Positions 5,075-63,033 of a stretch of DNA of 64,000 nucleotides are shown here, piece by piece; the first letter of the stretch is position 1, and every line of letters starts with the position of its first letter. A program made the position numbers and the translations under genes. A model generated the notes under the pieces. That model searched no databases and had not been told where the DNA came from. It saw nothing but the letters and a program-made list of their open reading frames with translations. This DNA is from Candidatus Shapirobacteria bacterium (GTDB lineage: Bacteria > Patescibacteriota > Microgenomatia > UBA12405), in the NCBI GenBank assembly GCA_041661765.1, contig JBAZTV010000003.1, positions 143,914 to 207,913 of the forward strand, in the 5' to 3' direction.

Positions 5075-5985
5075 ATTATTTTATCTAAAAGTTCAGAATA
5101 ATTTATTCCTGCTACTTTAGCCGCTTTTGGTAACAATGACTGTGCTGTCATTCCCGGAATAATATTAATTTCCAAAACATAAGCTTCGTCATTTTTAATA
5201 ATAAAATCTAACCTAGCCATTCCCTTACATTTTAATAATTTAAAAACCTTTTTTGATATTTCAAAAATTTTCTGGCTCAATTCGTCTGACACTCTTGCTG
5301 GCACAATTTCTTGACACAATTTCTCATTATATTTCGATTTATAATCAAAAAATTCATTTTTTGGACAAATCTCCACCAAAGGCAACGCTAATAATTCTCC
5401 ATTATCCTCAATTAAACTACAAGATACTTCTATTCCTTTTATGTATTCTTCAATTAAAATCTCTTGATCATACTTAAAGGCTAAATTTATGGCCTTCGTC
5501 AAATTTTCTTTCGATCTAACTATTGAAATTCCGATACTTGATCCTCCTAAAACCGGTTTAATCACCACTGGCCACCCTAATTTTTCCAAATCTTTTCCCC
5601 TCCTTTCGTCAAAGGAGGGGTTAGGGGTAGATTTCAAAAAAATTGCTTTAGGATTTTTTATCTCTTCTTTATTTACTAAAAATTTAAAAAACATTTTATT
5701 CATTCCTAAAATTGATGCCGCCGCTCCCGAACAAGTATATTTCTGCCCCATTGATTCCAATAAACTCTGAATCGTTCCATCTTCACCATATTTACCATGC
5801 AAAGCAATAAAAATTAAATCCGGTTTTATTTCATCTACCCAAGTGCAATCCCCATTAAAATCAACTGGAATTATTTCATATTTTTTCTTATCCAAATTCT
5901 TAACCACTTCATTTCCCGATATTAAAGACACTTCCCTCTCACTACTAATTCCACCCATTAACACCACCACTTTTAATTTTTTCAT
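5056..5985 (-). CDS. ddl: D-alanine--D-alanine ligase
   Basis: KVVVLMGGISSEREVSLISG...HGKYGEDGTIQSLLE...ARLDF...EINIIPGMT is the ATP-grasp Ddl pattern. Its 3' end overlaps the upstream ORF by a few codons. Confidence 0.9.
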   Translation of the reverse strand: MKKLKVVVLMGGISSEREVSLISGNEVVKNLDKKKYEIIPVDFNGDCTWVDEIKPDLIFIALHGKYGEDGTIQSLLESMGQKYTCSGAAASILGMNKMFFKFLVNKEEIKNPKAIFLKSTPNPSFDERRGKDLEKLGWPVVIKPVLGGSSIGISIVRSKENLTKAINLAFKYDQEILIEEYIKGIEVSCSLIEDNGELLALPLVEICPKNEFFDYKSKYNEKLCQEIVPARVSDELSQKIFEISKKVFKLLKCKGMARLDFIIKNDEAYVLEINIIPGMTAQSLLPKAAKVAGINYSELLDKIIQSALG

Positions 5986-6040: not shown

Positions 6041-7204
6041 TTGACTTGTAAACTAAACATGCTAAAATTAATCATGTCTGACTATCAAACCCTAAACGAA
6101 ATCGATATCGATTCATCTTATCTAATTAATAATTATAATTATTTCCAAAAAATTAATCCCAATTGTCACATTTGTCCTGTTTTAAAATCCAATGCTTATG
6201 GCCATGGACTACTTCAAGTCGCTCAAATTATTGATAAGCAATTAAAAAACACTCCATACATTATGGTCGACTCACTTTACGAAGCTTACGAACTCCACAA
6301 ACAAAATATAAAAACGCCAATTATGATAATGGGCTACACCGATCCTCAAAACTATCAAATTTGGAAAAAACTTCCTTTTACTTTTACTGTTTATGATATT
6401 GCCTCTCTCCAAGCCTTAGATAAATATCAAACTAACGCCAAAATTCATATTAAATTAGACACTGGTATGTGTCGCCTCGGTATTCAAAAAAAAGATGTTG
6501 CTGAATTTATTACTACTCTTAAAAAATATCCTCACCTTAAAATTGAAGGCATTTATTCTCATCTCTCTCAAGCCAATGATCCTAAAAAAATAACTTTCAC
6601 CAATCATCAAATAAAACTTTTTAAGGAAATGGTTTCTCTTTTTGAAAAAGCCGGTTTCCATTTTAAATACAAACACATTTCTGCCACTGCCGGCGCTTCT
6701 ATCATCCAAGATCCTTATTTTAATCTAATTCGTTTAGGATTAGGGTTTTATGGGTATTCCCCTTTTGGCACTCACACAAAAGAAGCCAGAACTCAAAAAT
6801 TATTTTTAAAACCGGCTCTAAATTTTACTTCCCGTTTAGCCCTTATCAAACAAATTGGAAGCGGCTCTCAAGTTAGTTACGGAGACAATTACACCGCCAA
6901 ACAAGACGAACTCATTGGTATTATCACTGCTGGCTATTACGAAGGTATCCCTTATGGTCTAAGCAATCGCGCCTCTTTTCTACTTCAAAACACCAAATGC
7001 TCTATTATTGGCAATATCAACATGAATATGACCATTATTAAAATTCCGAGAACTATAAATGCTAAAATTGGTGACAAAATTACTATTATTTCATCAAATA
7101 TTGAAGATTCCTGCTCTGCTTACAAATTATGCTCTACACTAAATATCCCCATTTATGTTCTTATTTGTTCACTACATTCATCAATTAGACGAAAAATTAT
7201 ATGA
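6041..7204 (+). CDS. alr: Alanine racemase
   Basis: CPVLKSNAYGHG contains the PLP-lysine motif (K in V.K.NAYGHG). Size is ~387 aa. Adjacent to murF and ddl. Confidence 0.85.
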   Translation: MTCKLNMLKLIMSDYQTLNEIDIDSSYLINNYNYFQKINPNCHICPVLKSNAYGHGLLQVAQIIDKQLKNTPYIMVDSLYEAYELHKQNIKTPIMIMGYTDPQNYQIWKKLPFTFTVYDIASLQALDKYQTNAKIHIKLDTGMCRLGIQKKDVAEFITTLKKYPHLKIEGIYSHLSQANDPKKITFTNHQIKLFKEMVSLFEKAGFHFKYKHISATAGASIIQDPYFNLIRLGLGFYGYSPFGTHTKEARTQKLFLKPALNFTSRLALIKQIGSGSQVSYGDNYTAKQDELIGIITAGYYEGIPYGLSNRASFLLQNTKCSIIGNINMNMTIIKIPRTINAKIGDKITIISSNIEDSCSAYKLCSTLNIPIYVLICSLHSSIRRKII

Positions 7205-8415
7205 AAAAAAATATTTCCAATCTCGTTTTAAATTATCTTAAATTTTTTGCCCGACTTCAACTTTCCAAAGTTAGATTTATCCAAAAATTAAAAAGAAAAC
7301 AGTTGGATATTGTCGGCATCACTGGCTCTGCTGGTAAAAGTTCTACTCTTTTTGCCTGTCAAACTATTCTTTCTTCTCACTTCAAAGTGAAAACAAACGA
7401 TGGCTATAATTCTGAATCTGGATTACCTTTAAGTATTATTGGTCTTAAAATCACTGATTATAATCTTCTTTCCTGGTTAAAAATAATTATTCTTTGCCCA
7501 ATTAAATTATTAATTAATTGGCAATCTTACGATATCTTAATTCTGGAAATGGGTGTTGACTCCCCCACTTGGCCCAAAAACATGGATTATCTTTTATCTA
7601 TAGTTCAACCCAACATCGCAATTTTTCTTAATGTCAGTTCTGTCCATATGATGAATTTCAAAAATCTTGATCAAATTGCCCAAGAAAAAGCAAAATTGGT
7701 CAATTCCGCCAAAACAGCCATCATTAATAACCAAGACAAATTAGTCAAAAAATACACTCAAAATAAAAATATTATTAATCTTGTTCCCACTAAAATTAAA
7801 TTTGACCAATTTTATCTTCCCGATATTTATCAAATCAGTTTTGGTGCCGCCCTCAGCCTAACCAGAATTTTTAACATCAACTACAACCAAGCTGTCAAAA
7901 ATCTTCAAACAAATTTTGTTCTGCCCCCATCCCGTTCTTCAATTTTAGACGGCATTAAAAATACAACTATTATCGACAGTTCTTACAATTCCTCCCCTAT
8001 TGCTTGTATTGAACTTTTAAAATTTTTAACCACTTTCAAAACCAAAAAAATTGCTGTTCTTGGCGATATGAGAGAACTCGGTAATTCTAGTAAGGAAGAA
8101 CATCAAAAAATTTACGATTTAGCCACTAAATCGGCTGATTTAATTATCAGTGTCGGACCAGAAACAAAAAAATATTTTATTAGTAGAGACGTTGCGCGCA
8201 ACGTCTCTACATTTAATTTTGATAATTGGTGGACAGCTGCCGAATTTTTAAAAGAACAAATTAAAGGTGATGAAACCATTTTAGTCAAAGGCTCTCAAAA
8301 CACCATTTTTCTTGAAGAATTAGTCAAATCAATTTTAAAAAATCCATCCGATTCTAAAAAACTCTGCCGCCAATCTCCCTATTGGCTAAAAGTCAAAGCC
8401 AAATTTAAGCTCTAA
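7201..8415 (+). CDS. murF: UDP-N-acetylmuramoyl-tripeptide--D-alanyl-D-alanine ligase (Mur ligase family, MurF-like)
   Basis: DIVGITGSAGKSST is the Mur ligase P-loop. DSSYNSSP and LGDMRELG are C-terminal-domain motifs. The start overlaps the alr stop. Confidence 0.8.
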   Translation: MKKNISNLVLNYLKFFARLQLSKVRFIQKLKRKQLDIVGITGSAGKSSTLFACQTILSSHFKVKTNDGYNSESGLPLSIIGLKITDYNLLSWLKIIILCPIKLLINWQSYDILILEMGVDSPTWPKNMDYLLSIVQPNIAIFLNVSSVHMMNFKNLDQIAQEKAKLVNSAKTAIINNQDKLVKKYTQNKNIINLVPTKIKFDQFYLPDIYQISFGAALSLTRIFNINYNQAVKNLQTNFVLPPSRSSILDGIKNTTIIDSSYNSSPIACIELLKFLTTFKTKKIAVLGDMRELGNSSKEEHQKIYDLATKSADLIISVGPETKKYFISRDVARNVSTFNFDNWWTAAEFLKEQIKGDETILVKGSQNTIFLEELVKSILKNPSDSKKLCRQSPYWLKVKAKFKL

Positions 8416-9001
8416 ATTCCTTATCCTTTTTCATCTCATGCTCAATCAAGTTTCTCAAAAACACCGACCTTGGTTGCATTCTTTTTTGAGCCACCCAATC
8501 TAAATAATTCAATATTTTTGGATTAACAAAAAAATTAAATCTCACATCAATCAAACTATCTGCCTTTTTTAAAGCTCCTTCTATTATTTGTTCTACATTT
8601 TCACCATCATATTCCGACATTATCAATTTTGGATCATCAATACCCTTAATAAATACCGGCATATGCTCCTTTTTATACAATGCAATTACTGGTTTATTCA
8701 TTTCCAAAGCTTTACTTATTAGATATCCCATCGACATACTATGTCCCGAAACTTCCATTATCACAATATCTGCCTTTTTAACTGAATCAAGCGATTGAAT
8801 ATAATTTTCCCTTTTTATTTTTTGCGGTACTCCGCGCATATCCTTCACCCCTGTTTTTATCCACTTCATCACCTTGTCACTAAGCATCTTTCCTTCAGCC
8901 GACAAACAAGCATACATTTTTGAATACAATTTTGGATCAATATCCACCAATCTAGCAGATGCTACAAAATATAATTTCATAAATTTATCCAAGTATATCA
9001 A
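8405..9001 (-). CDS. Hypothetical protein. Possibly nucleoside 2-deoxyribosyltransferase-like fold with a C-terminal extension.
   Basis: KLYFVASAR...ADIVIMEVSG...GYLISKALEMNKPVIAL weakly resembles NDT-like Rossmann proteins. Not diagnostic. Confidence 0.35.
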   Translation of the reverse strand: MIYLDKFMKLYFVASARLVDIDPKLYSKMYACLSAEGKMLSDKVMKWIKTGVKDMRGVPQKIKRENYIQSLDSVKKADIVIMEVSGHSMSMGYLISKALEMNKPVIALYKKEHMPVFIKGIDDPKLIMSEYDGENVEQIIEGALKKADSLIDVRFNFFVNPKILNYLDWVAQKRMQPRSVFLRNLIEHEMKKDKEFRA

Positions 9002-10097
9002 ATTTTTCTTTAAAAAATCTTACATCTTGTTCCATTGTTTTATCCCAATCTTGTTTAAAATTATGATCATTTTTCTCTTTAATATCCAAAATCACATTCT
9101 TTCCTAATTCTTTTAATTTAATTTGCAGTTCCTGTTGCCATTCAACTTTACACCACACATCCGCTGTTCCCTGATGAATCAAAATCGGCGCTCCAACCCA
9201 ATTATAAAAATTATCAATTGAATAAAGTTTACTGTCATATTCTTTTTCAAATTCATCAATCCTATTTTTTACAATTTTCCCCGATTCACTATTTTCATCC
9301 ATTGTATCCAAAACACTGTTCGGAAATGGATTGGTCATCGGCGCCCACAACACCGTCGGATAATTTTGTCCAGTAATTTCCAAAATTGAAATTGCAATCT
9401 GCCCACCATTACTATGTGCCCAAATTCCAATTTTAGTCGGATCCACAAAATCTAATTTTTTAACTGACTCAATTAAATCCAAAACACTCACCGGTTTTTC
9501 AAATCTTGCTTCTAAAATATCCTTCGACTCTCCATCAGATAAACCAAATCCCAAAAAATCCAAACTGACTGTTACAAAACCATTTCTGGCCAATTCATCC
9601 GCCGCCCGCCAACTTCCCGAACCAATATAATATCCATCACTATCAGCAAAACCTCTAATCATAATAATCACTGACGGTTTTTTACACGGTTTGTCCAACT
9701 GGCAGACCTGCCTGCCGGCAGGCAGGTTCATCATTCCACTTATTTTTTTTCCATTACTTTCAAAACTAATTGCCCTGCTTTCAAAATCAAAAATTTTTCC
9801 TTTCAAGTCACCTCTCTTTACTAATTCTTTTCTTGCTTCAACTACTGTCAAAACCTGACCTATTGTTTTAATCTCTGATGCTTTATTTATCCTTGTTTTT
9901 AAATTTTCAAAATTATATTGTGCCAAATAACCAGTGTTTTTTGGTTTTTCTTCTTGTAGAGACGCCCCACGGGGCGTCTCTACAGCTTCCGTTTTTAATT
10001 TCTGTTTTGTAAAATCTACCAAAAACCATCCATCCGCCCAACCCCAAAAAACTAAAACTATTACCACCCAAAAAATAATAATTAAACTTTTTTTCAT
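8985..10097 (-). CDS. Membrane-anchored alpha/beta-hydrolase-fold serine hydrolase
   Basis: N-terminal TM IIIFWVVIVLVFWGW. Nucleophile elbow GIWAHSNGGQIA (G-x-S-x-G). Contains two in-frame palindromic elements (9705-9729 and 9956-9983). Confidence 0.6.
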   Translation of the reverse strand: MKKSLIIIFWVVIVLVFWGWADGWFLVDFTKQKLKTEAVETPRGASLQEEKPKNTGYLAQYNFENLKTRINKASEIKTIGQVLTVVEARKELVKRGDLKGKIFDFESRAISFESNGKKISGMMNLPAGRQVCQLDKPCKKPSVIIMIRGFADSDGYYIGSGSWRAADELARNGFVTVSLDFLGFGLSDGESKDILEARFEKPVSVLDLIESVKKLDFVDPTKIGIWAHSNGGQIAISILEITGQNYPTVLWAPMTNPFPNSVLDTMDENSESGKIVKNRIDEFEKEYDSKLYSIDNFYNWVGAPILIHQGTADVWCKVEWQQELQIKLKELGKNVILDIKEKNDHNFKQDWDKTMEQDVRFFKEKFDILG

Positions 10098-12489: not shown

Positions 12490-12655
12490 CGAAAGTTTTT
12501 GATAATTATTATCAATTATATTCGGAGCCATTTTTTATGATATAATACCCCATTAACCGAAGACAGTAGGCACACAAATAAGTCCCACCGAGGCAAAACA
12601 ATTTATTTGTTTTAATTGCGCCTCGATCTTCGAGGCTTTTTTTATTAAAAAATAC
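12490..12655 (+). promoter_or_regulatory. Probable L10 (rplJ) leader / autoregulatory 5'-UTR with a terminator-like hairpin
   Basis: Long untranslated region immediately upstream of rplJ. It has paired segments ggcttcgaaag ... gcctcgatcttcgaggcttttttt. rplJ-rplL operons are classically regulated by an L10(L12)4-binding leader. Confidence 0.4.
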
Positions 12656-13612: not shown

Positions 13613-13624
13613 TTTTTTTATTTT

Positions 13625-13662
13625 AAACATTAAAATCCCTCTATTTTAGGGGGATTTTTTTT
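13625..13662 (+). terminator. Terminator-like hairpin after rplL
   Basis: aaatccctctattttagggggattttttttacc. Confidence 0.5.
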
Positions 13663-14127
13663 ACCATAATTCACCGGATTATCCTTAATATATTTTTTAT
13701 AAATCAAATATTCTTTTTCGTTTCGAATCCCTCTATCAAAAAATGATTTTTGCCATTCAAAACAAAATATTTTATTAATATTTTTTGAAATTGCTGATTT
13801 AAATGATCCAACAATAATTGGAATTATTTGATTTTGCCTTCTGTTTACTTGGGGACAGGCATGCCTGTCCCCTACAATAAATACAATTGCATGAATATGA
13901 TCTGGCATTATTACATAATCATCTAAAATAACATTTGGATAATGTTTTGGTATTTCATTCCATAATTCATTTGCCAAAATTCCAAAATCAGTCAAATAAA
14001 TTTGACCATTCTCAATGGTTCCAAAAAAATTTCTTCTATTTTTCATACAAATCGTTAAAAAATAAAAACCACCACTATCGTAATTAAAATTTAAACATCT
14101 ATTATTTTTTCTTTGACACGATCGCAT
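13630..14127 (-). mobile_element. IS200/IS605-family Y1 (HUH) tyrosine transposase, REP-associated type (RAYT-like), 165 aa. A palindromic repeat (13851-13872) is embedded in-frame.
   Basis: YFLTICMKNRRNFFG is the N-terminal beta-strand region. MPDHIHAIV is the HUH motif. The C-terminal catalytic-Tyr region is EKEYLIYKKYIKDNPV (YI..NP). Flanked upstream by two further copies of the same palindrome. Confidence 0.8.
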
Positions 14128-14150
14128 ATTTTAATATTTGTATTTTTTTG

Positions 14151-14316
14151 TTGTAGGGTACAGGCATGCCTGTACCCTGTTATTCACAATTATTATTAAT
14201 ATAATATGTAATATTAAATACATGATAATTAAATTGCAATAAAACATATAAAAAATCCCTCAATATTTTATACAAATGTGTGTAAAACAAAGTACAGGCA
14301 TGCCTGTCCCCTACAA
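14151..14316. repeat. Two inverted or nested copies of the 32-nt perfect palindrome TTGTAGGGGACAGGCATGCCTGTCCCCTACAA (family 2), separated by an AT-rich spacer, upstream of the RAYT gene
   Basis: ttgtagggtacaggcatgcctgtaccctgtt at 14151-14181. agtacaggcatgcctgtcccctacaac at 14290-14316. Further copies lie inside the RAYT ORF (13846-13877) and at 23721-23750. Confidence 0.8.
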
Positions 14317-14333
14317 CAAAAACAAAATTTTTT

Positions 14334-23714: not shown

Positions 23715-23885
23715 TCGTGCCTGTAGGGGACAGGCATGCCTGTCCCCTCCCTTAATACAAAACCTCTCTGTCTCCCCGCGACCGCGGGGAGACATCTCCC
23801 CTTAACAAGGGGAGAAGTCAAATTAAAATTAAAGATTTCCGCCCTCTTTGAGGGAGGATGTCCGCAGGACAGGAGGGATTTGAGT
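23715..23885. repeat. Cluster of at least four different hairpin elements (family 2 palindrome, gggga-gacatctccccttaacaaggggag, and others) between ruvC and murB
   Basis: ctgtaggggacaggcatgcctgtcccctcc. ctccccgcgaccgcggggagacatctccccttaacaaggggagaagtc. gccctctttgagggaggatgtccgcaggacaggaggg. Confidence 0.75.
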
Positions 23886-30670: not shown

Positions 30671-30743
30671 CAGGGATTAGCGCAATTGGTAGCGTGCAGC
30701 GTTCGGGACGCTGAGGTTGCAGGTTCGACTCCTGTATCCCTGA
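30671..30743 (+). tRNA. tRNA-Pro (anticodon CGG), no encoded CCA
   Basis: Manual fold: acceptor CAGGGAT/ATCCCTG. D-arm GCGC-AATTGGTA-GCGT. Anticodon arm CAGCG-TTCGGGA-CGCTG (anticodon CGG). T-arm GCAGG-TTCGACT-CCTGT. Discriminator A. The C1-G72 start is typical of bacterial tRNA-Pro. Confidence 0.8.
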
Positions 30744-30817: not shown

Positions 30818-30889
30818 GTCCTCATAGTTCAATGGATAGAACGACCACCTCCTAAGTGGTAAATCCAAGTTCGATTCTTGGTGGGGATA
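30818..30889 (+). tRNA. tRNA-Arg (anticodon CCT), no encoded CCA
   Basis: Manual fold: acceptor GTCCTCA/TGGGGAT with two G-U pairs. D-arm GTTC-AATGGATA-GAAC. Anticodon arm ACCAC-CTCCTAA-GTGGT (anticodon CCT). T-arm CCAAG-TTCGATT-CTTGG. Discriminator A. Confidence 0.7.
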
Positions 30890-32662: not shown

Positions 32663-35131
32663 TTAATCTTTTATAACAAAATTAATCATTTTACCCTCAA
32701 TATATATCTCTTTAACTATCACTTTACCATTAATCCATTTTTTAATCTTCTCCTGTCCTTTTGCTCTTTCAACAATTTCGTCTTTATCATTCTGCTTTGC
32801 AAAATTAATTTCTAGCTGATCTCTAACTTTACCATTAATAGCTATCGCCACTATTATTTTATCTTCAATTAAATATTGAGAGTCAGCCTTGGGCCACTCA
32901 GCAATATGAACTGATGCGTATTCGTGTAGATACGCACGATCGTGCGTCTCTACCATAAAATATAATTCTTCGGCCGTATACGGCGCAAATGGCGCCAATA
33001 ACTTAATTAAAGTTTTTATATCTTCATCTACCATCGACAATCTAAGATCTGTCAATTTATTTAGCGCTTCCATCATCTGAGCAATAGCAGTATTGTACTT
33101 GAATTGCTCATTCATATCGGTAATGTTTTTAATTGTTTTATTTAATATCACTTTAACTTCTCTATTTTTAGCAGTCTCACTACCAACTTGATTAATTTGT
33201 AGTTTGATAAACTGCTCAAATCTATCCAAAAATCTTTTTACCCCCATTAAAGTGTTTTCATTCCAAGCCATAGTCGAATCAAATGGACCCATAAACATCA
33301 TATACATTCTCACCACATCAACCCCGTATTTATCAGCTACTACTTCCGGCACAATTACATTACCTTTAGATTTACTCATTCTTTGATTATCTGGACCCAA
33401 AATAACTCCATGTGACAATCTTTTATAATAAGGCTCTGGCTGTTCTTTTGGTACTACTCCCAAATCCCATAAAAATTTATAAATAAACCGTGAATACAAT
33501 AAGTGTAGAACGTTATGTTCATCTCCTCCAACATAAACATCAACCGGACACCAATACTTCATCAATTCTTGACTAGCTAGAACTGTATCATTATCTGGAT
33601 CAATATATCTCAAAAAGTACCAATCACTACCTGCCCAATTCGGCATGGTGTCTGTTTCCCTTTCTGCCTTTCCACCACACTTTGGACATTTAGTTTTTAC
33701 AAAACTTTCAATTTTTGACAACGGACTTTTACCATCATCGGTCGGCTCATATACTTCCACTTCTGGCAGCACAATTGGCAGATCACTTTCAGCAACCGGC
33801 ACCCAACCGCATTTTGGACAATTGATCATTGGAATTGGTTCGCCCCAATAATGCTGTCTTGAAAATATCCAATCTCTTAAATGATACGACGCCGTCCTTT
33901 CCCCAATGCCTTTTTCTGATAACCACTTAATCACTTTTTTAATTGCCTCTTCTTTGTTTAAACCATTTAAAAAATCTGAATTTATTACTTTATTACTTTT
34001 TTCGTCATAGACTTTAATCATTTCTAAACCAAATTTCTTAGCAAATTCTTCATCTCTTTCATCGTGGGCTGGCACTGACATAATTGCTCCAGTTCCATAA
34101 CTAGCCAAAACAAAATCCGAAATCCAAATTGGGATTTCTTTATTATTAACCGGATTAATCGCATATAATCCTGAGAACACTCCCGTTTTATCTTTGGAAA
34201 GTTCCGTTCTTTCTAGGTCAGATTTTTTCTTCGATTGTTTAATATATGTCTCGATATTTTTTTGTAGAGACGCATCATGATGCGTCTCTAACAATTGCGA
34301 AACAAGTTGATGTTCTGGTGCTATCACCATAAATGTGGCTCCAAAAAGTGTATCTGGTCTGGTTGTAAACACCTCAAGATAATCTGTAGAGACGTAGCGC
34401 GCTACGTCTCTACTACTTGACGAACTTTTAACTTTAAACTTTATTTTTGCCCCTTCTGATTTTCCAATCCAATTAATCTGCGCCTGTTTTACTTTTTCAA
34501 TAAAATTAGTTTCTTCTAATCCTTCAATTAATTTATCAGCATACTCTGTTATTTTCACCACCCATTGAGAAATATTCCTTCGACTCACCTCTGATCCACA
34601 TCTCTCACATTTCCCATCCACCACTTCCTCATTTGCCAAACCAATTTTGCAAGATGGACACCAATTAATCGGCATCTCTTTCTTATATGCCAACCCCTTA
34701 TTAAATAGTTGAATAAAAATCCACTGAGTCCATTTATAATAGTGTGGATCAGTAGTGTTGACTTCCCGACTCCAATCAAATGAAAAAGCTAAATCCTTCA
34801 TTTGTTTTCTGAACATATCAGTATTTTCTTTAGTTACATCCTGCGGTTTTCTTTTCATCTTAATTGCATAATTTTCTGTTGGTAATCCAAACGCATCCCA
34901 ACCCATCGGAAATAAAACATTCTCTCCCTGCATTCTTTTAAACCGAGCATAAACATCACCTCCAGTAAAGCTAAAAGCATGTCCCACATGAAGCCCACTA
35001 CCACTTGGATATGGAAATTCAACAAGAATATATTTTTTATTTTTTTTTGAATTATTATCTGCTTGATAAAGTCCAGGATGTTCTTCCCAAAATTTCCTCC
35101 ATTTATTTTCTATTTCCTTGAAATTTTCCAT
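32663..35131 (-). CDS. leuS: Leucyl-tRNA synthetase
   Basis: PYPSGSGLHVGHAFSFTGGDVYARFKRMQGENVLFPMGWDAFGLP contains the HIGH region. KMSKSKGN is present. 822 aa. Carries three in-frame family-1 palindromes (32926-32953, 34264-34291, 34386-34413). Confidence 0.95.
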   Translation of the reverse strand: MENFKEIENKWRKFWEEHPGLYQADNNSKKNKKYILVEFPYPSGSGLHVGHAFSFTGGDVYARFKRMQGENVLFPMGWDAFGLPTENYAIKMKRKPQDVTKENTDMFRKQMKDLAFSFDWSREVNTTDPHYYKWTQWIFIQLFNKGLAYKKEMPINWCPSCKIGLANEEVVDGKCERCGSEVSRRNISQWVVKITEYADKLIEGLEETNFIEKVKQAQINWIGKSEGAKIKFKVKSSSSSRDVARYVSTDYLEVFTTRPDTLFGATFMVIAPEHQLVSQLLETHHDASLQKNIETYIKQSKKKSDLERTELSKDKTGVFSGLYAINPVNNKEIPIWISDFVLASYGTGAIMSVPAHDERDEEFAKKFGLEMIKVYDEKSNKVINSDFLNGLNKEEAIKKVIKWLSEKGIGERTASYHLRDWIFSRQHYWGEPIPMINCPKCGWVPVAESDLPIVLPEVEVYEPTDDGKSPLSKIESFVKTKCPKCGGKAERETDTMPNWAGSDWYFLRYIDPDNDTVLASQELMKYWCPVDVYVGGDEHNVLHLLYSRFIYKFLWDLGVVPKEQPEPYYKRLSHGVILGPDNQRMSKSKGNVIVPEVVADKYGVDVVRMYMMFMGPFDSTMAWNENTLMGVKRFLDRFEQFIKLQINQVGSETAKNREVKVILNKTIKNITDMNEQFKYNTAIAQMMEALNKLTDLRLSMVDEDIKTLIKLLAPFAPYTAEELYFMVETHDRAYLHEYASVHIAEWPKADSQYLIEDKIIVAIAINGKVRDQLEINFAKQNDKDEIVERAKGQEKIKKWINGKVIVKEIYIEGKMINFVIKD

Positions 35132-36949: not shown

Positions 36950-37010
36950 CCCGCCCTCCTGCCTGCCGGCAGGCAAGGTCGGACATCTCCCCTTAACAAA
37001 GGGAGAAATC
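36950..37010. repeat. Composite hairpin element (GCCGGC-centred family 3 palindrome plus ctccccttaacaaagggag hairpin). An inverted copy lies at 45175-45230.
   Basis: cgccctcctgcctgccggcaggcaaggtcggacatctccccttaacaaagggag is nearly identical to the reverse complement of 45175-45227. Confidence 0.75.
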
Positions 37011-40936: not shown

Positions 40937-41051
40937 AACCCACCCTGCTAAAAGACTATTCCTTTTTTTTCAAAATCCACCCCTACCCCTCCTTTGACTT
41001 AAAGGAGGGGTTTATTATTTATAATGTAATTTAAATTACTTATAATAAATA

Positions 41052-44006: not shown

Positions 44007-44138
44007 AACTTAAAATTAAAACCCACCCGCCCTGCGGGCACCCTCCCTTAAAAAAGGAGGGTTTTTGTTTATCCGTAGAGACGTTCTGCAGAACGTCTCT
44101 ACATAAAAAACATTATCCTGGGCACCCCGCATTGCGGG

Positions 44139-45116: not shown

Positions 45117-45335
45117 AATTAATTAAACCCTAACCCTACCCTTTCCCTTGACAGGGCAAGGGTTAAAAAAAATGCTCCCTTGTCAAGGGGAGATGTCCGA
45201 CCTTGCCTGCCGGCAGGCAGGAGGGCTGAGGGGTTTTAAATAAAGAGAGAAGGTGGGTTTTAATTTCTTTTTATAATAAATATTACAATTACTTGATATA
45301 TTTTATTAATATTATTCTCATTTATACTTTAAATT

Positions 45336-46353: not shown

Positions 46354-46654
46354 ACAAAACCCCCTCCAGCTACTGCGGGAAGGGATTTTTTAGTCTCACC
46401 AAATCGTTTTTTACACGAATCGAATTTGCCAAACAACTAAACATAACAATTAACAACACCATTGTCAATTAGATATTGTTATTTAATTCACAAAAACCAT
46501 CGTGGATCTAGGGAGAATTGAACCCCCGAGACCAAATTTGGCAAATTCGATTCCCAACCTGGTAGGCCCACGACAACTTATATTAACACAATATTGTAAT
46601 TATTATTACAGAATATATTTAATTAAATAAAAATTATTTTGTTTTGGGCGATTC

Positions 46655-46814
46655 ATGAATCGCCCCTACATGTTATCCTTTTTATATATAATGCCTCGTA
46701 AAAAACCCTTTCAAAATCCCTCTAAATCTCCCTTTGACTTAAAGGGAGACTTTAAAAACAAAATTTTATTATCCCCTCCTTTAAGTCAAAGGAGGGGTAG
46801 GGGTGGATTTTGAC
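46655..46814 (+). promoter_or_regulatory. Conserved ~155-bp upstream cassette of the giant-protein genes. Contains a putative -10 (tatatataat) and two hairpins. Copies at 56474-56632 (near-identical) and 51820-51925 (partial).
   Basis: ...catgttatcctttttatatataatgcctcgtaaaaaaccctttcaaaatccctctaaatctccctttgacttaaagggagactttaaaaacaaaattttattatcccctcctttaagtcaaaggaggggtaggggtggattttgacATG. Confidence 0.6.
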
Positions 46815-51809: not shown

Positions 51810-51978
51810 TTTTCCCCTCCTTGTCAAAATCCCTCTAAATCTCCCTTTGACTTAAAGGGAGACTTTAAAAAAAATTATTATCCCCTCCTTTAAGTCAAAG
51901 GAGGGGTAGGGGTGGATTTTGAAGAAAGGGAGGATACCGGTTTATCCGGAGGAAGGATTCAAATGTTAAACTAAATTA

Positions 51979-56395: not shown

Positions 56396-56632
56396 AAATA
56401 ATTATTAGGATTTAAAGCCTCCCTGTCAAGGGAGGTGGCGAGTGAAACGAGACGGAGGGTTTTGAATTAAAAATGAATCCCCTCCCCATGTTATCCTTTT
56501 TATATATAATGCCTCGTAAAAAACCCTTTCAAAATCCCTCTAAGTCTCCCTTTGACTTAAAGGGAGACTTTAAAAACAAAATTTTATTATCCCCTCCTTT
56601 AAGTCAAAGGAGGGGTAGGGGTGGATTTTGAC

Positions 56633-61783: not shown

Positions 61784-61795
61784 AATTTCTAGTCT

Positions 61796-61869
61796 GTAGA
61801 GACGTAGCGCGCTACGTCTCTACAAAAATAATATTCTCCCAGTAGAGACGCCACGCATGGCGTCTCTAC
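61796..61869. repeat. Two tandem family-1 REP-like palindromes (GTAGAGACG-N8-CGTCTCTAC) immediately after giant gene 3
   Basis: gtagagacgtagcgcgctacgtctctac at 61796-61823 and gtagagacgccacgcatggcgtctctac at 61842-61869. Identical or near-identical copies at 8184-8210, 9956-9983, 32926-32953, 34264-34291, 34386-34413, 44075-44102, 62594-62621 and 63520-63547. Confidence 0.9.
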
Positions 61870-62343: not shown

Positions 62344-63033
62344 ATTTAAAACGCCCCCCCCATAATATTCATTTGTTCCATCCCTCACAAAATTTTCTCT
62401 ACGATATATCCCCTACGACCTAAATCCTAATTTTAACCATTCCTTAAACACCAAACCATTCTTTTATACCGATTAGCAAACAGACCAAAATTCTGCCACC
62501 AAAAATCCCTCTAGTACATCAAAAATAAACAAAACTAAAACTAACCCATCAAAAATTTAATTTTAAAAAGTATCTTATAAAAAGAAATAATCTGTAGAGA
62601 CGCCATGCATGGCGTCTCTACAATATTTAAATATGTCTCTACTAATTTAAATATGTCTCAGCAAAAATTATTTTCACACTTTACAAACACATCCTATAAT
62701 TATTTTTAGTTATATACATCACATCTCTTTATCTACAATCTATCACCTACGACCTAAGATTCATTTATACCCTTCTCTTAAACACAAAAACGCCCTCCAC
62801 TCCCCTTTAGCACCACCGTGTCCAATCTGCCAACAAAAATAAAATAAATACATCATAAACAAACATTTAAAAACATTGTGACTCAAAAATTAAATTGAAA
62901 AAAATAGCTTATATTTTAAAATCCCTCTCTAGTTTCAATCTTCCCCCTGACCCCCTTCTTTGACAAGACGGGGGAAATAATTGTCTTTTTTAAAGTCCCT
63001 CTTGTCAAAGAGGGATTTAGGGAGATTGAATCC

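Follow-up and report, generated by a model that had tools for sequence, protein, structure and literature searches.

The window analysed here, 64,000 nucleotides of a contig from Candidatus Shapirobacteria, contains a gene for a small transposase-like protein with a GC-rich palindrome inside its reading frame and related palindromes just upstream. Does this gene encode a REP-associated protein (RAYT, or TnpA-REP) accompanied by its own REPs, and why should one of these REPs lie within the coding sequence itself? As argued below, the locus is very probably a REPtron whose TnpA-REP/RAYT is of subclass 2.4, hosted by a CPR bacterium and with its own GTAG-tagged REP carried in frame in a permissive loop of the protein.

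We begin with the gene, which had been described previously as a 165-aa open reading frame with the motifs PDHIHAIV and YI..NP. Both motifs were confirmed, the second reading YIKDNP in full:

13630 to 14127, minus strand: RAYT (TnpA-REP) gene, 165 aa, with HUH histidines H77 and H79, W125-Q126, catalytic Tyr146 and the motif YIKDNP.

The HUH motif reads PDHIH, and the tyrosine motif is of the Y-x3-NP type, unlike the Y-x3-Q of IS200. In an alignment of 42 homologues, H77, H79, Y146 and N150 are invariant and I147 is nearly so. The AlphaFold model (mean pLDDT 83.8) is confident except for one loop and the termini; it places H77 and H79 on strand 77–84 and Y146 on helix 137–153, and in an alignment with the E. 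coli protein Y146 falls on the Tyr of DYIYINP. The Pfam profile Y1_Tnp (PF01797), which the preliminary description had singled out, does match over 112 of its 121 positions, but at 19 bits (E = 1.6e-3) the match stays below the gathering threshold of 23; several close homologues have precomputed PF01797 matches. The NCBIfam model REP_Tyr_transpos similarly scores 56 bits (E = 4e-15) against an equivalog cut-off of 80. This model is presumably built around the E. coli type.

The gap left by these sub-threshold scores is filled by fold and motif evidence. By sequence, the best match of solved structure is TnpA-REP of E. coli in complex with a REP hairpin (PDB 4ER8, E = 5.5e-5), with WQ...R and Y...NP aligned. 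A Foldseek search with the AlphaFold model also ranked 4ER8 first (E = 4.5e-8, TM-score 0.63), followed by the IS608 and ISDra2 TnpA proteins. All 30 Foldseek matches at E <= 0.001 are Y1 transposases, namely 4ER8, ISDra2, IS608, IS200, a Sulfolobus tokodaii transposase and the putative D. radiodurans transposase DR_0177. Moreover, the residues that contact GTAG in 4ER8 (W94, Q95, E100, H101 and R104, numbered as in PMC6006769) align with W125, Q126, D131, R132 and R135, and are retained or conservatively replaced. The E-to-D and H-to-R replacements at these positions have also been reported in other REP-associated subclasses (PMC6006769). The protein cluster is called RayT by JGI and labeled 'transposase' of Ca. 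Shapirobacteria by NCBI; it includes shorter gene calls.

The palindromes of this locus, which we refer to as family A, share a 22-nt core, GGGGACAGGCATGCCTGTCCCC, that is exact only at 13851-13872 and 23726-23747. They had been presented as four occurrences of a 32-nt perfect palindrome, TTGTAGGGGACAGGCATGCCTGTCCCCTACAA, which is exact nowhere, the four sites differing from it by 3, 5, 7 and 4 bases. Related copies do lie near all four places, but only two have the exact core and the two upstream of the gene are variants:

13851 to 13875, minus strand: in-gene REP; on the sense strand, 5'-GTAG followed by the hairpin GGGGACAGG-CATG-CCTGTCCCC, read in frame as V85-Q93; second foot lost (CCCCAAG).
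14153 to 14178, plus-strand foot: proximal upstream REP, ~25 nt from the start codon; compensated variant GTAGGGTACAGGCATGCCTGTACCCT (GGGTAC...GTACCC at 14156-14177).
14292 to 14314, minus-strand foot: distal upstream REP, with a degraded 3' arm and, over 14290-14311, a weak fold (-3.6 kcal/mol, z = -1.3).
14145 to 14322, no strand assigned: REPIN-like doublet formed by both upstream REPs, ~39-nt inverted repeats with feet pointing outward.
23723 to 23748, plus strand: dispersed REP copy with the exact 22-nt core and a plus-strand GTAG foot; intergenic, beside other GC-rich hairpins.

Four family-A copies in 64 kb compare with zero matches in 100 shuffles, and three of the four fold into strong DNA hairpins (z -3.9 to -5.9). 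The presence of a conserved 5' tetranucleotide, raised earlier as a point to check, is borne out by a GTAG/CTAC tag on all four copies. Each copy retains only one GTAG foot, on the minus strand in the copies at 13851 and 14290 and on the plus strand in those at 14156 and 23726. The arms of the upstream doublet are identical at 35 of 39 positions, each beginning with TTTTTGTTGTAGGG, and enclose an AT-rich spacer of ~100 nt with promoter-like hexamers. Enrichment of the palindromes near the gene is also evident: a stretch of 470 nt at and within the RAYT gene holds three of the four (P ~7e-4 by simulation), leaving a single dispersed copy in the window. We counted against our explanation that copies are so few and mostly at the gene, which makes dissemination of family A through this genome no more than putative. 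Together with the 4ER8 match by both sequence and fold, the invariant H77, H79 and Y146 and the GTAG-contact residues, these data support the earlier view of a RAYT with cognate REPs: 13630-14127 encodes a Y1/HUH protein of RAYT type, and the GTAG-tagged REPs cognate to it lie beside and inside its own gene.

Could the palindromes instead act chiefly at the level of RNA or transcription, as terminators, attenuators or mRNA stabilisers unlinked to the activity of the protein? The cdd stop codon is followed after 20 nt by the distal upstream copy, which has a terminator-like score (hairpin plus T-rich tail), and elsewhere REPs are known as 3' UTR elements (PMC3733652). Against this, the in-gene copy lacks a T-run behind the palindrome, relatives from different phyla keep, along with the gene, the GTAG tag and a constant 28-nt geometry, and each RAYT allele has its own REP type. 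We therefore regard a chiefly RNA-level role as improbable. In an Rfam search, no family matched at the RAYT locus, and the only matches in the window were an L10 leader and two tRNAs.

The neighborhood of the gene bears on a different alternative. The RAYT gene lies between rplL and cdd, with no tnpB, and at its 3' end it abuts and overlaps another hairpin:

13636 to 13662, plus strand: rplL intrinsic terminator, the complement of which encodes the final residues of the RAYT open reading frame, PPKIEGF.

The gene had been described as flanked by its palindromes. This holds for the 5' side, which carries all flanking REPs; the 3' side has no REP, only the rplL terminator. Six-frame motif scans of the 64-kb window found no second Y1 gene, so the RAYT gene is single-copy there. 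To place the locus among its relatives, we relied on exact-protein look-ups for gathering orthologue loci, in place of a search of a metagenome contig collection, which had returned 11 loci, few of them close. The orthologues occur in three different genomic contexts, and in one of them (L100) the upstream REP pair moves along with the gene. In sister genomes the rplL-cdd locus is occupied by another RAYT allele, and every allele has an in-gene REP type of its own.

The varied contexts and the co-moving REP pair of L100, together with the Y1 fold and the IS608 and ISDra2 TnpA proteins among the top structural matches, would also be expected of an autonomous IS200/IS605 insertion sequence whose left-end and right-end hairpins are the palindromes seen here. 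Such an element should look otherwise: the tyrosine motif is Y-x3-NP (class 2) and not Y-x3-Q, the neighbors are rplL and cdd without tnpB, there is one copy in 64 kb, the 3' side has no hairpin save the rplL terminator, and TnpA-REP is the best match in both structure and sequence. An autonomous insertion sequence is accordingly very improbable.

We then turned to the in-gene REP itself. As described previously, the palindrome encodes VGDRHACPQ in frame just after the HUH motif; these are residues V85-Q93, which start five residues past the second His. In the AlphaFold model, residues 85-100 are unstructured with low pLDDT and form a predicted surface loop that connects the HUH strand (beta3) to helix alphaC, which follows it. 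The homologue alignment has a hypervariable block at this beta3-alphaC position. The earlier suggestion that the element is tolerated in a loop is thereby supported.

The alternative suggestion, that the gene is a decaying pseudogene broken by its own element, was not supported. It could draw on the HMM scores below curated cut-offs, on the shorter gene calls within the protein cluster and on a frameshifted RAYT at the same locus in a sister genome (L104). Nevertheless, the identical intact open reading frame is present on contigs from three independent samples, the catalytic residues are kept and the GTAG-contact residues are kept or conservatively replaced. The structural model is confident outside the loop and termini. 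Among orthologues, codon positions 1+2 are 84% conserved versus 67.5% for position 3, and the insertion is in frame in every one of them. Decay of this gene is thus extremely unlikely.

The orthologues are equally informative about the palindrome. At 66-87% amino-acid identity, seven of seven carry the in-gene REP at the same codon. Some show the compensatory arm change GGGGAC/GTCCCC -> GGGAAC/GTTCCC, and two (L084 and L103) have the full double-foot form, GTAGGGGACAGGCATGCCTGTCCCCTAC; on the 20-kb contig of L084, the in-gene REP is the sole GTAG-footed palindrome. Pairwise third-position identity between orthologues is 96.8% in the REP versus 67.5% in the rest of the gene, and the third base is invariant in 8 of 9 REP codon columns versus 50 of 143 elsewhere (Fisher p = 0.002). 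The REP also differs in composition, GC3 being 5/9 within it versus 22/156 in the remaining gene. The copy is no recent accident: orthologues have inherited it at one shared codon, and its DNA is constant, palindromy included. The constancy of the DNA could, on the other hand, reflect repeated re-copying or gene conversion instead of purifying selection.

Next, we looked at how general in-gene REPs are in the wider family. A perfect stem of >=9 bp between HxH and WQ is present in 45 of 77 genes of distant relatives from many phyla, and at least 34 of these 45 stems have a GT[AG]G foot. The foot-detection script misses feet within longer palindromes (for example, in L027 and L028), so that in-gene foot counts, as well as the locus and density counts that follow, are lower bounds. 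Across relatives, the geometry of the in-gene REP is a constant 28-nt double-foot unit. The accompanying covariation count is partly circular, as the sequences had been picked as palindromes, and was therefore used only for geometry and diversity. In two pairs of genes (L013/L028 and L024/L090), identical REPs are found at only 57-59% protein identity, where synonymous sites are saturated (9/9 vs 0.37-0.39). One REP type is read in two frames among relatives, as VGARHAVPL and as RGTACRAPT, which indicates that the conserved entity is the DNA and not the peptide. Likewise, the related genes L013, L027 and L028 have the same REP type at differing offsets and frames; judged from these sequences, some REP turnover does appear to occur.

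Two readings of the in-gene REP have to be weighed here. In the first, which is that of the 2018 paper describing the subclass (PMC6006769), the palindrome is a passive, neutral insertion in a tolerant loop, with no role as DNA or RNA. The encoded peptide does lie in an unstructured loop, and offsets and frames vary among relatives. Three in-frame REPs of another family are found in leuS, and others in the genes for a Mur ligase and a peptidase, so coding insertions are broadly tolerated in this genome. Yet footed palindromes have a background of 0.6 per 10 kb (358 kb around relatives), whereas ~58% of the genes have one within a segment of ~170 nt, both values being lower bounds. Of 20 long loci, 9 contain no footed palindrome other than the in-gene REP, again by the conservative foot count. 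Furthermore, synonymous sites are far more conserved in the REP than elsewhere and arm changes are compensatory. Purely passive insertion thus seems possible, but on the doubtful side. On density grounds alone, random insertion into a tolerant loop looked insufficient.

In the second reading, the in-gene REP is a selectively maintained cis element, the enzyme's own substrate inside its reading frame, so that gene and REP are inseparable. In its favor, synonymous conservation within the REP lies far above that of the remaining gene in several independent pairs, the arms change in a compensatory manner, the unit is a constant 28 nt, identical REPs occur in proteins that are only ~57% identical, and many loci have no copy besides the in-gene one within 12-20 kb. 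A co-inherited unit of gene plus REP would also fit the exchange of whole RAYT alleles at one locus between sister Shapirobacteria, each with its own in-gene REP type. We put forward selective maintenance as a tentative but serious possibility.

If the analogy with E. coli TnpA-REP holds, the system might work as follows. The gene would encode a single-domain HUH/Y1 single-strand DNA endonuclease-ligase. The protein would bind a GC-rich hairpin with a 5' GTAG tag in single-stranded DNA, such as the lagging-strand template, and would then cut and rejoin the DNA beside the hairpin, so that a REP is copied or moved. Its putative cognate REP is the GGGGACAGG-CATG-CCTGTCCCC hairpin, found once in the gene, twice in the inverted upstream doublet and once 10 kb away. 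The in-gene copy, lying in the permissive beta3-alphaC loop, is tolerated by the protein. That the RAYT protein cleaves family-A REPs is an inference, as is the idea that the in-gene copy, beyond mere tolerance, may be kept as a substrate of the enzyme, be it a linked 'seed' moving with the gene or a site of autoregulation.

A second REP family in the window, family B (GTAGAGACG...CGTCTCTAC), is much more abundant than family A, and its cognate gene is absent from the 64-kb window. It is this family whose members lie in frame in leuS, the Mur ligase and the peptidase. Family B might be served by this RAYT or by another protein. We counted its abundance without a cognate gene in the window against our explanation. 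The family-B REP type and the REP of the relatives L024/L090 both appear under subclass 2.4 in Table S1 of PMC6006769, where GTAGAGACGCACGGCCGTGCGTCTCTAC and GTAGGGGCAATTCATGAATTGCCCCTAC are listed as subclass 2.4 REPs; these are 28-nt 'double-foot' types.

What is already known, then, is the in-frame in-gene type of REP, described for subclass 2.4 in 2018; what is added here is the CPR host and the DNA-level constraint on the in-gene REP. As it stands, the result is one of annotation: a CPR genome with a probable subclass 2.4 RAYT and its REPs, which explains the GC-rich palindromes across an AT-rich genome and the odd peptides encoded in essential genes, leuS among them. Patescibacteria are thereby added to the known hosts of subclass 2.4; a literature search for RAYT or REP in this group retrieved no relevant report. 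In the published view the in-gene REP is a harmless insertion, whereas the DNA-level constraint found here points to a possible cis role. If functional, the in-gene copy may found a new population of REPs after transfer, or may allow the protein to sense the gene that encodes it or regulate that gene, and would bear on the long-term joint persistence of REPs and domesticated transposases.

How does the locus compare with known systems? The closest is TnpA-Y1 subclass 2.4 (Quentin, Siguier, Chandler & Fichant 2018, PMC6006769), equivalent to RAYT Group 4 of Bertels et al. 2017 (PMC5581495). An in-frame REP insertion between HuH and Tyr is described there as the unique feature of this subclass, and the in-gene copy is therefore a published hallmark, not the unusual occurrence that it had been taken for. 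We had ourselves considered a conserved hairpin inside a RAYT gene to be novel, perhaps in the manner of the phiX174 gene A and pT181 repC origins, each within its own rep gene, but dropped the idea as PMC6006769 precedes it. Shared features are the WQ motif, Y-x3-NP, a variable insertion between beta3 (HuH) and alphaC, the in-frame in-gene REP, 'long' or 28-nt double-foot REPs of the form GT[AG]G...C[TC]AC with G-C pairs at the stem base, and relatives in Cyanobacteria, Bacteroidota, Chlorobi, Chloroflexota and other phyla. The present protein differs in having DHIH instead of NH[IFV]H and YIKDNP instead of YIxNNP, with WQ kept; relatives at 35-45% identity do carry NH[IFV]H and YIxNNP. It is also shorter (165 aa vs the subclass median of 194), resides in a CPR/Patescibacteria host and has flanking REPs on the 5' side only. 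These departures of DHIH and YIKDNP from the subclass consensus, like both missed HMM cut-offs, we counted against our explanation. The published Aggregatibacter subclass 2.4 REP, GTAGGGACAGAC, was searched for in the fetched loci as a way to tie in the Actinobacillus relative (L031), with no match. With single-stranded REP DNA as substrate, strand-specific cleavage and strand transfer are documented in vitro for no other enzymes than those of E. coli, S. maltophilia and Marinomonas, which cover groups 2 and 3 (PMC8266576), and in the literature searched there was no biochemical assay of any subclass 2.4 enzyme.

E. coli TnpA-REP (RayT, YafM; 4ER8; subclass 2.2, Group 2) has in common with our protein the catalytic HUH and Tyr and the 5' GTAG on its REPs; W94, Q95 and R104 are conserved here, with D and R replacing E100 and H101. 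Sequence identity is only ~21%, however, and the E. coli protein has WE where ours has WQ, as well as a C-terminal tail contacting GTAG. Its REPs are imperfect palindromes with a bulge, located on both sides of the gene and never inside it. The IS200/IS605 TnpA proteins of IS608 and ISDra2 share the Y1 HUH fold and the use of a single-stranded hairpin with a 5' guide tetranucleotide. In contrast, theirs are true insertion sequences, with Y-x3-Q, multiple copies, often tnpB and hairpins at both ends, none of which is seen here.

As to the palindromes, the pair at 14145-14322 consists of two inverted REPs, the arrangement proposed as the mobile unit in REPINs (Bertels & Rainey 2011, PMC3116915), although here the spacer of ~100 nt is long, one arm is degraded and a single doublet is seen. 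Finally, intragenic REPs and Rickettsia palindromic elements (Di Nocera et al. 2013, PMC3733652) likewise are short palindromes in frame within coding genes, including those of tRNA synthetases. The insertion in the RAYT gene, unlike these, is a family-wide feature with a fixed position, and its cognate protein is the very one that hosts it.

The ORF at 13630–14127 on the minus strand encodes a 165-aa protein with the motifs PDHIHAIV, EWQKSFFDRGIRN and YIKDNP. It is the only RAYT-type (REP-associated tyrosine transposase) gene in the 64-kb window, which has a G+C content of 34.5%. On its left lies the convergent rplJ–rplL pair, with the rplL terminator overlapping the final RAYT codons, and upstream on the same strand is a cytidine/dCMP deaminase gene (cdd). 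An exact look-up matched the protein to Candidatus Shapirobacteria MAGs; it is named 'transposase' by NCBI and 'REP element-mobilizing transposase RayT' by JGI.

RNA features detected with Rfam
12539–12651: ribosomal protein L10 leader, upstream of rplJ
30671–30743 and 30818–30889: two tRNA genes

The preliminary description had assigned this ORF to RAYT-type Y1 transposases and proposed a profile search as a check. The Pfam profile Y1_Tnp (PF01797) scored 19 bits, missing its cut-off of 23, and NCBIfam REP_Tyr_transpos was also below its curated threshold (56 bits vs 80, E = 4e-15). These scores aside, the remaining evidence is consistent with TnpA-REP. The sole significant relative of solved structure detected by sequence was E. 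coli TnpA-REP (4ER8), with the WQ...R and Y...NP blocks aligned. The same structure was the top Foldseek match (E = 4.5e-8, TM 0.63) of the AlphaFold model (mean pLDDT 83.8, pTM 0.80), followed by ISDra2, IS608 and IS200 transposases. H77, H79, K110, Y146 and N150 are shared by all 42 homologs in an alignment, in which W125 and Q126 are almost invariant. The E. coli residues reported to contact GTAG (W94, Q95, E100, H101 and R104; PMC6006769) correspond to W125, Q126, D131, R132 and R135. The RAYT-type assignment therefore stands.

A 32-nt perfect palindrome had also been described at four sites. What recurs at all four is a 22-nt core, GGGGACAGGCATGCCTGTCCCC, within three mismatches (no sites in 100 shuffles); the idealized 32-mer is exact at none, the copies differing from it by 3, 5, 7 and 4 bases. 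We refer to this candidate cognate REP as family A.

Family-A copies, with the strand of the GTAG-type foot
13851–13872: inside the ORF; foot on the sense (minus) strand; exact core
23726–23747: remote copy; foot on the plus strand; exact core
14156–14177: proximal upstream copy; foot on the plus strand; compensated variant GGGTAC...GTACCC
14290–14311: distal upstream copy; foot on the minus strand; one arm degraded

Each of the four copies retains one GTAG foot, the tetranucleotide suggested as a test of RAYT recognition, and folding yields a strong single-strand DNA hairpin in all except the distal copy. The proposed enrichment near the gene is likewise borne out, as three of the four copies fall within 470 nt (chance P ~7e-4); on the rplL side of the gene no REP was found. 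The upstream copies are ~39-nt inverted repeats (35/39 identical), each starting with TTTTTGTTGTAGGG, with outward-pointing feet and a spacer of ~100 nt, and constitute a REPIN-like doublet. The distal one lies 20 nt past the deaminase stop codon and has a terminator-like score. Beside the remote copy, further GC-rich hairpins crowd the intergenic stretch 23720–23870, among them TGTCTCCCCGCGACCGCGGGGAGACA and TCTCCCCTTAACAAGGGGAGA.

In the AlphaFold model, residues 85–100, including the REP-encoded V85–Q93, form an unstructured low-confidence loop between strand 77–84 and helix 101–117. Because the REP encodes loop in this model, the protein appears to tolerate it, one of two options offered by the preliminary description. 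The other option, that the gene is decaying, is not supported by the orthologs. DNA was retrieved for seven orthologs (66–87% amino-acid identity) and, from independent samples, for the window gene itself. The REP occupies the identical codon in all orthologs, immediately past the HUH strand (...F-I / GTA GGG...); the complete 28-nt form with a foot at both ends (double-foot), GTAGGGGACAGGCATGCCTGTCCCCTAC, is present in several, and three have a compensated form, GTAGGGAACAGGCATGCCTGTTCCCTAC, in which D→N and P→S change jointly. Gene-wide, codon positions 1 and 2 are better conserved than position 3, and therefore the RAYT protein is under purifying selection. Third-position pairwise identity is 96.8% over the nine REP codons vs 67.5% elsewhere; for columns whose amino acid never varies, the value is 74.6%. 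The third base is invariant in 8/9 REP codon columns vs 50/143 elsewhere (Fisher p = 0.002), and GC3 is 5/9 in the REP vs 22/156 in the remainder of the gene. The in-gene palindrome is inherited and is not a scar.

RAYT orthologs in two other gene neighborhoods
L084, 10001–10471
L085, 3799–4278
L100, 2160–2630

In one of these neighborhoods, RAYT overlaps an Exo_endo_phos gene with its start codon and is followed by a YgjP-like gene; in the other, it is flanked by a 659-aa ORF and an acetyltransferase. Within the group, therefore, either the gene moved or the genomes were rearranged. On contigs with differing neighborhoods, the family-A core is confined to the RAYT gene, and in L084 (20 kb) the in-gene REP is the sole footed palindrome. 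An upstream REP pair is present with the gene in L100 and in a further ortholog locus, L099; in L100 the two REPs move along with the gene.

Scanning one genome per species for relatives gave 490, and 80 loci were retained; the phyla include Bacteroidota, Chloroflexota, Cyanobacteria, Chlorobi, Nitrospirota and Patescibacteria. A perfect stem of at least 9 bp lies between HxH and WQ in 45/77 genes, 34 of them with a GT[AG]G/C[TC]AC foot, and in 15/76 N-terminal control segments, which can include upstream REPs. Centered palindromes have a constant 28-nt geometry (consensus GTAGGG-N-C-N3-GCATGC-N3-G-N-CCCTAC), and their inner pairs vary freely yet stay complementary, a test that is partly circular since the sequences were selected as palindromes. 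Identical REPs occur in genes with only 57–59% protein identity and saturated synonymous sites. Footed palindromes number 0.6 per 10 kb around the 20 long loci that carry an in-gene REP, and at nine of these loci the in-gene one stands alone. Taken together, stem frequency, geometry, shared REPs and low background density indicate that random insertion plus tolerance fails to explain the association.

By homology, the protein would bind the hairpin that carries the GTAG tag when the DNA is single-stranded, and would cut and rejoin the DNA alongside; this would spread REPs, singly or as doublets. What remains of interest is what the in-gene REP may do. It is constant at the DNA level, its changes are compensatory and it is often the sole local copy, which together suggest retention; we tentatively propose that it may serve as the enzyme's linked substrate or as a cis-regulatory site. 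The main alternative to such retention is passive tolerance with occasional re-copying. One REP is read in two frames among genes (VGARHAVPL and RGTACRAPT, never the TAG-giving frame). One REP type is found at different offsets and frames in related genes, so some turnover does occur.

Two sister Shapirobacteria genomes, L104 and L105, have rplJ, rplL and cdd 87–91% identical to the window in DNA; at the rplL–cdd locus they carry another RAYT allele (41% protein identity).

Different RAYT allele, syntenic with window 13613–14333
L104, 4949–5533
L105, 4944–5529

Only the last ~80 nt of the gene and the terminator are common to both alleles (~90% identity). The sister allele, frameshifted by 1 nt in L104, contains an in-gene inverted REP doublet, GTAGGGGCGAATCATGATTCGCCC ... 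GGGGCGATTCATGAATCGCCCCTAC. This allele type is absent from the window; a copy of its REP, GGGCGATTCATGAATCGCCCCTAC, is intergenic at 46646–46669.

A second family, B, outnumbers family A in the window. It has at least 10 copies, all perfect palindromes of 28–30 nt in double-foot form, (T)GTAGAGACG-N10-CGTCTCTAC(A). Between copies, the inner 5+5 nt vary but are complementary in every one.

Family-B copies
8183–8210
9955–9984
32926–32953
34264–34291
34386–34413
44075–44102
61795–61824
61842–61869
62593–62622
63520–63547

Genes with in-frame family-B REPs, and encoded peptides
32663–35131, minus strand: leuS (leucyl-tRNA synthetase), three REPs; SRDVARYVST, ETHHDASLQ, VETHDRAYL
7201–8415, plus strand: Mur ligase; SRDVARNVST
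8985–10097, minus strand: peptidase S9/hydrolase; VETPRGASLQ

The peptidase gene's copy is conserved in L105. The window has no cognate RAYT for family B, and REPs of this type lie inside the genes of the relatives L093, L096 and L032. Two further kinds of palindrome are without a GTAG foot. One is a conserved module of two hairpins, TCTCCCTTTGACTTAAAGGGAGA followed by CCCCTCCTTTAAGTCAAAGGAGGGG, which recurs at 46727–46797, 51840–51906 and 56542–56615, just 5′ of each of three very large ORFs of 1668, 1309 and 1720 aa (46803, 51979 and 56621); further sites are at 40985–41011 and 5597–5620. Palindromes with the core TGCCTGCCGGCAGGCA are located at 9706–9727, 36960–36975 and 45204–45219, one of them in frame within the peptidase gene, encoding LPAGRQV.

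Quentin, Siguier, Chandler and Fichant (2018; PMC6006769) sorted TnpA-Y1 proteins into subclasses, of which 2.4 is Bertels' Group 4. It has the motifs NH[IFV]H, WQ and YIxNNP, 'long' and 'double foot' REPs, and a variable insertion between β3 and αC; REP insertions in the gene are in frame between HuH and Y and modeled as a peripheral extension. In-frame REPs at this position are thus published, and the in-gene copy is not unusual for this family, contrary to the preliminary description. Subclass 2.4 entries in their Table S1 include GTAGAGACGCACGGCCGTGCGTCTCTAC, which is the window's family-B type, and GTAGGGGCAATTCATGAATTGCCCCTAC, a REP found in the relatives L024 and L090. According to Bertels et al. 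2017, Cyanobacteria, Chlorobia and Caldilineae commonly carry Group 4, whose flanking 16-mers are only modestly repeated. GTAG REPs and intragenic REPs, including those in tRNA synthetases, have been described (Di Nocera et al. 2013), and enzymology is limited to groups 2 and 3 (PMC8266576). Our literature search found no RAYT/REP reports for Patescibacteria. Compared with subclass 2.4, the window protein is shorter, has DHIH for NH[IFV]H and YIKDNP for YIxNNP, and comes from a CPR host. Overall, the preliminary observation is partly confirmed and its interpretation supported, except for 'unusual' and 'decaying'. Given its match to subclass 2.4, the locus belongs to a kind already described, and its novelty is low.
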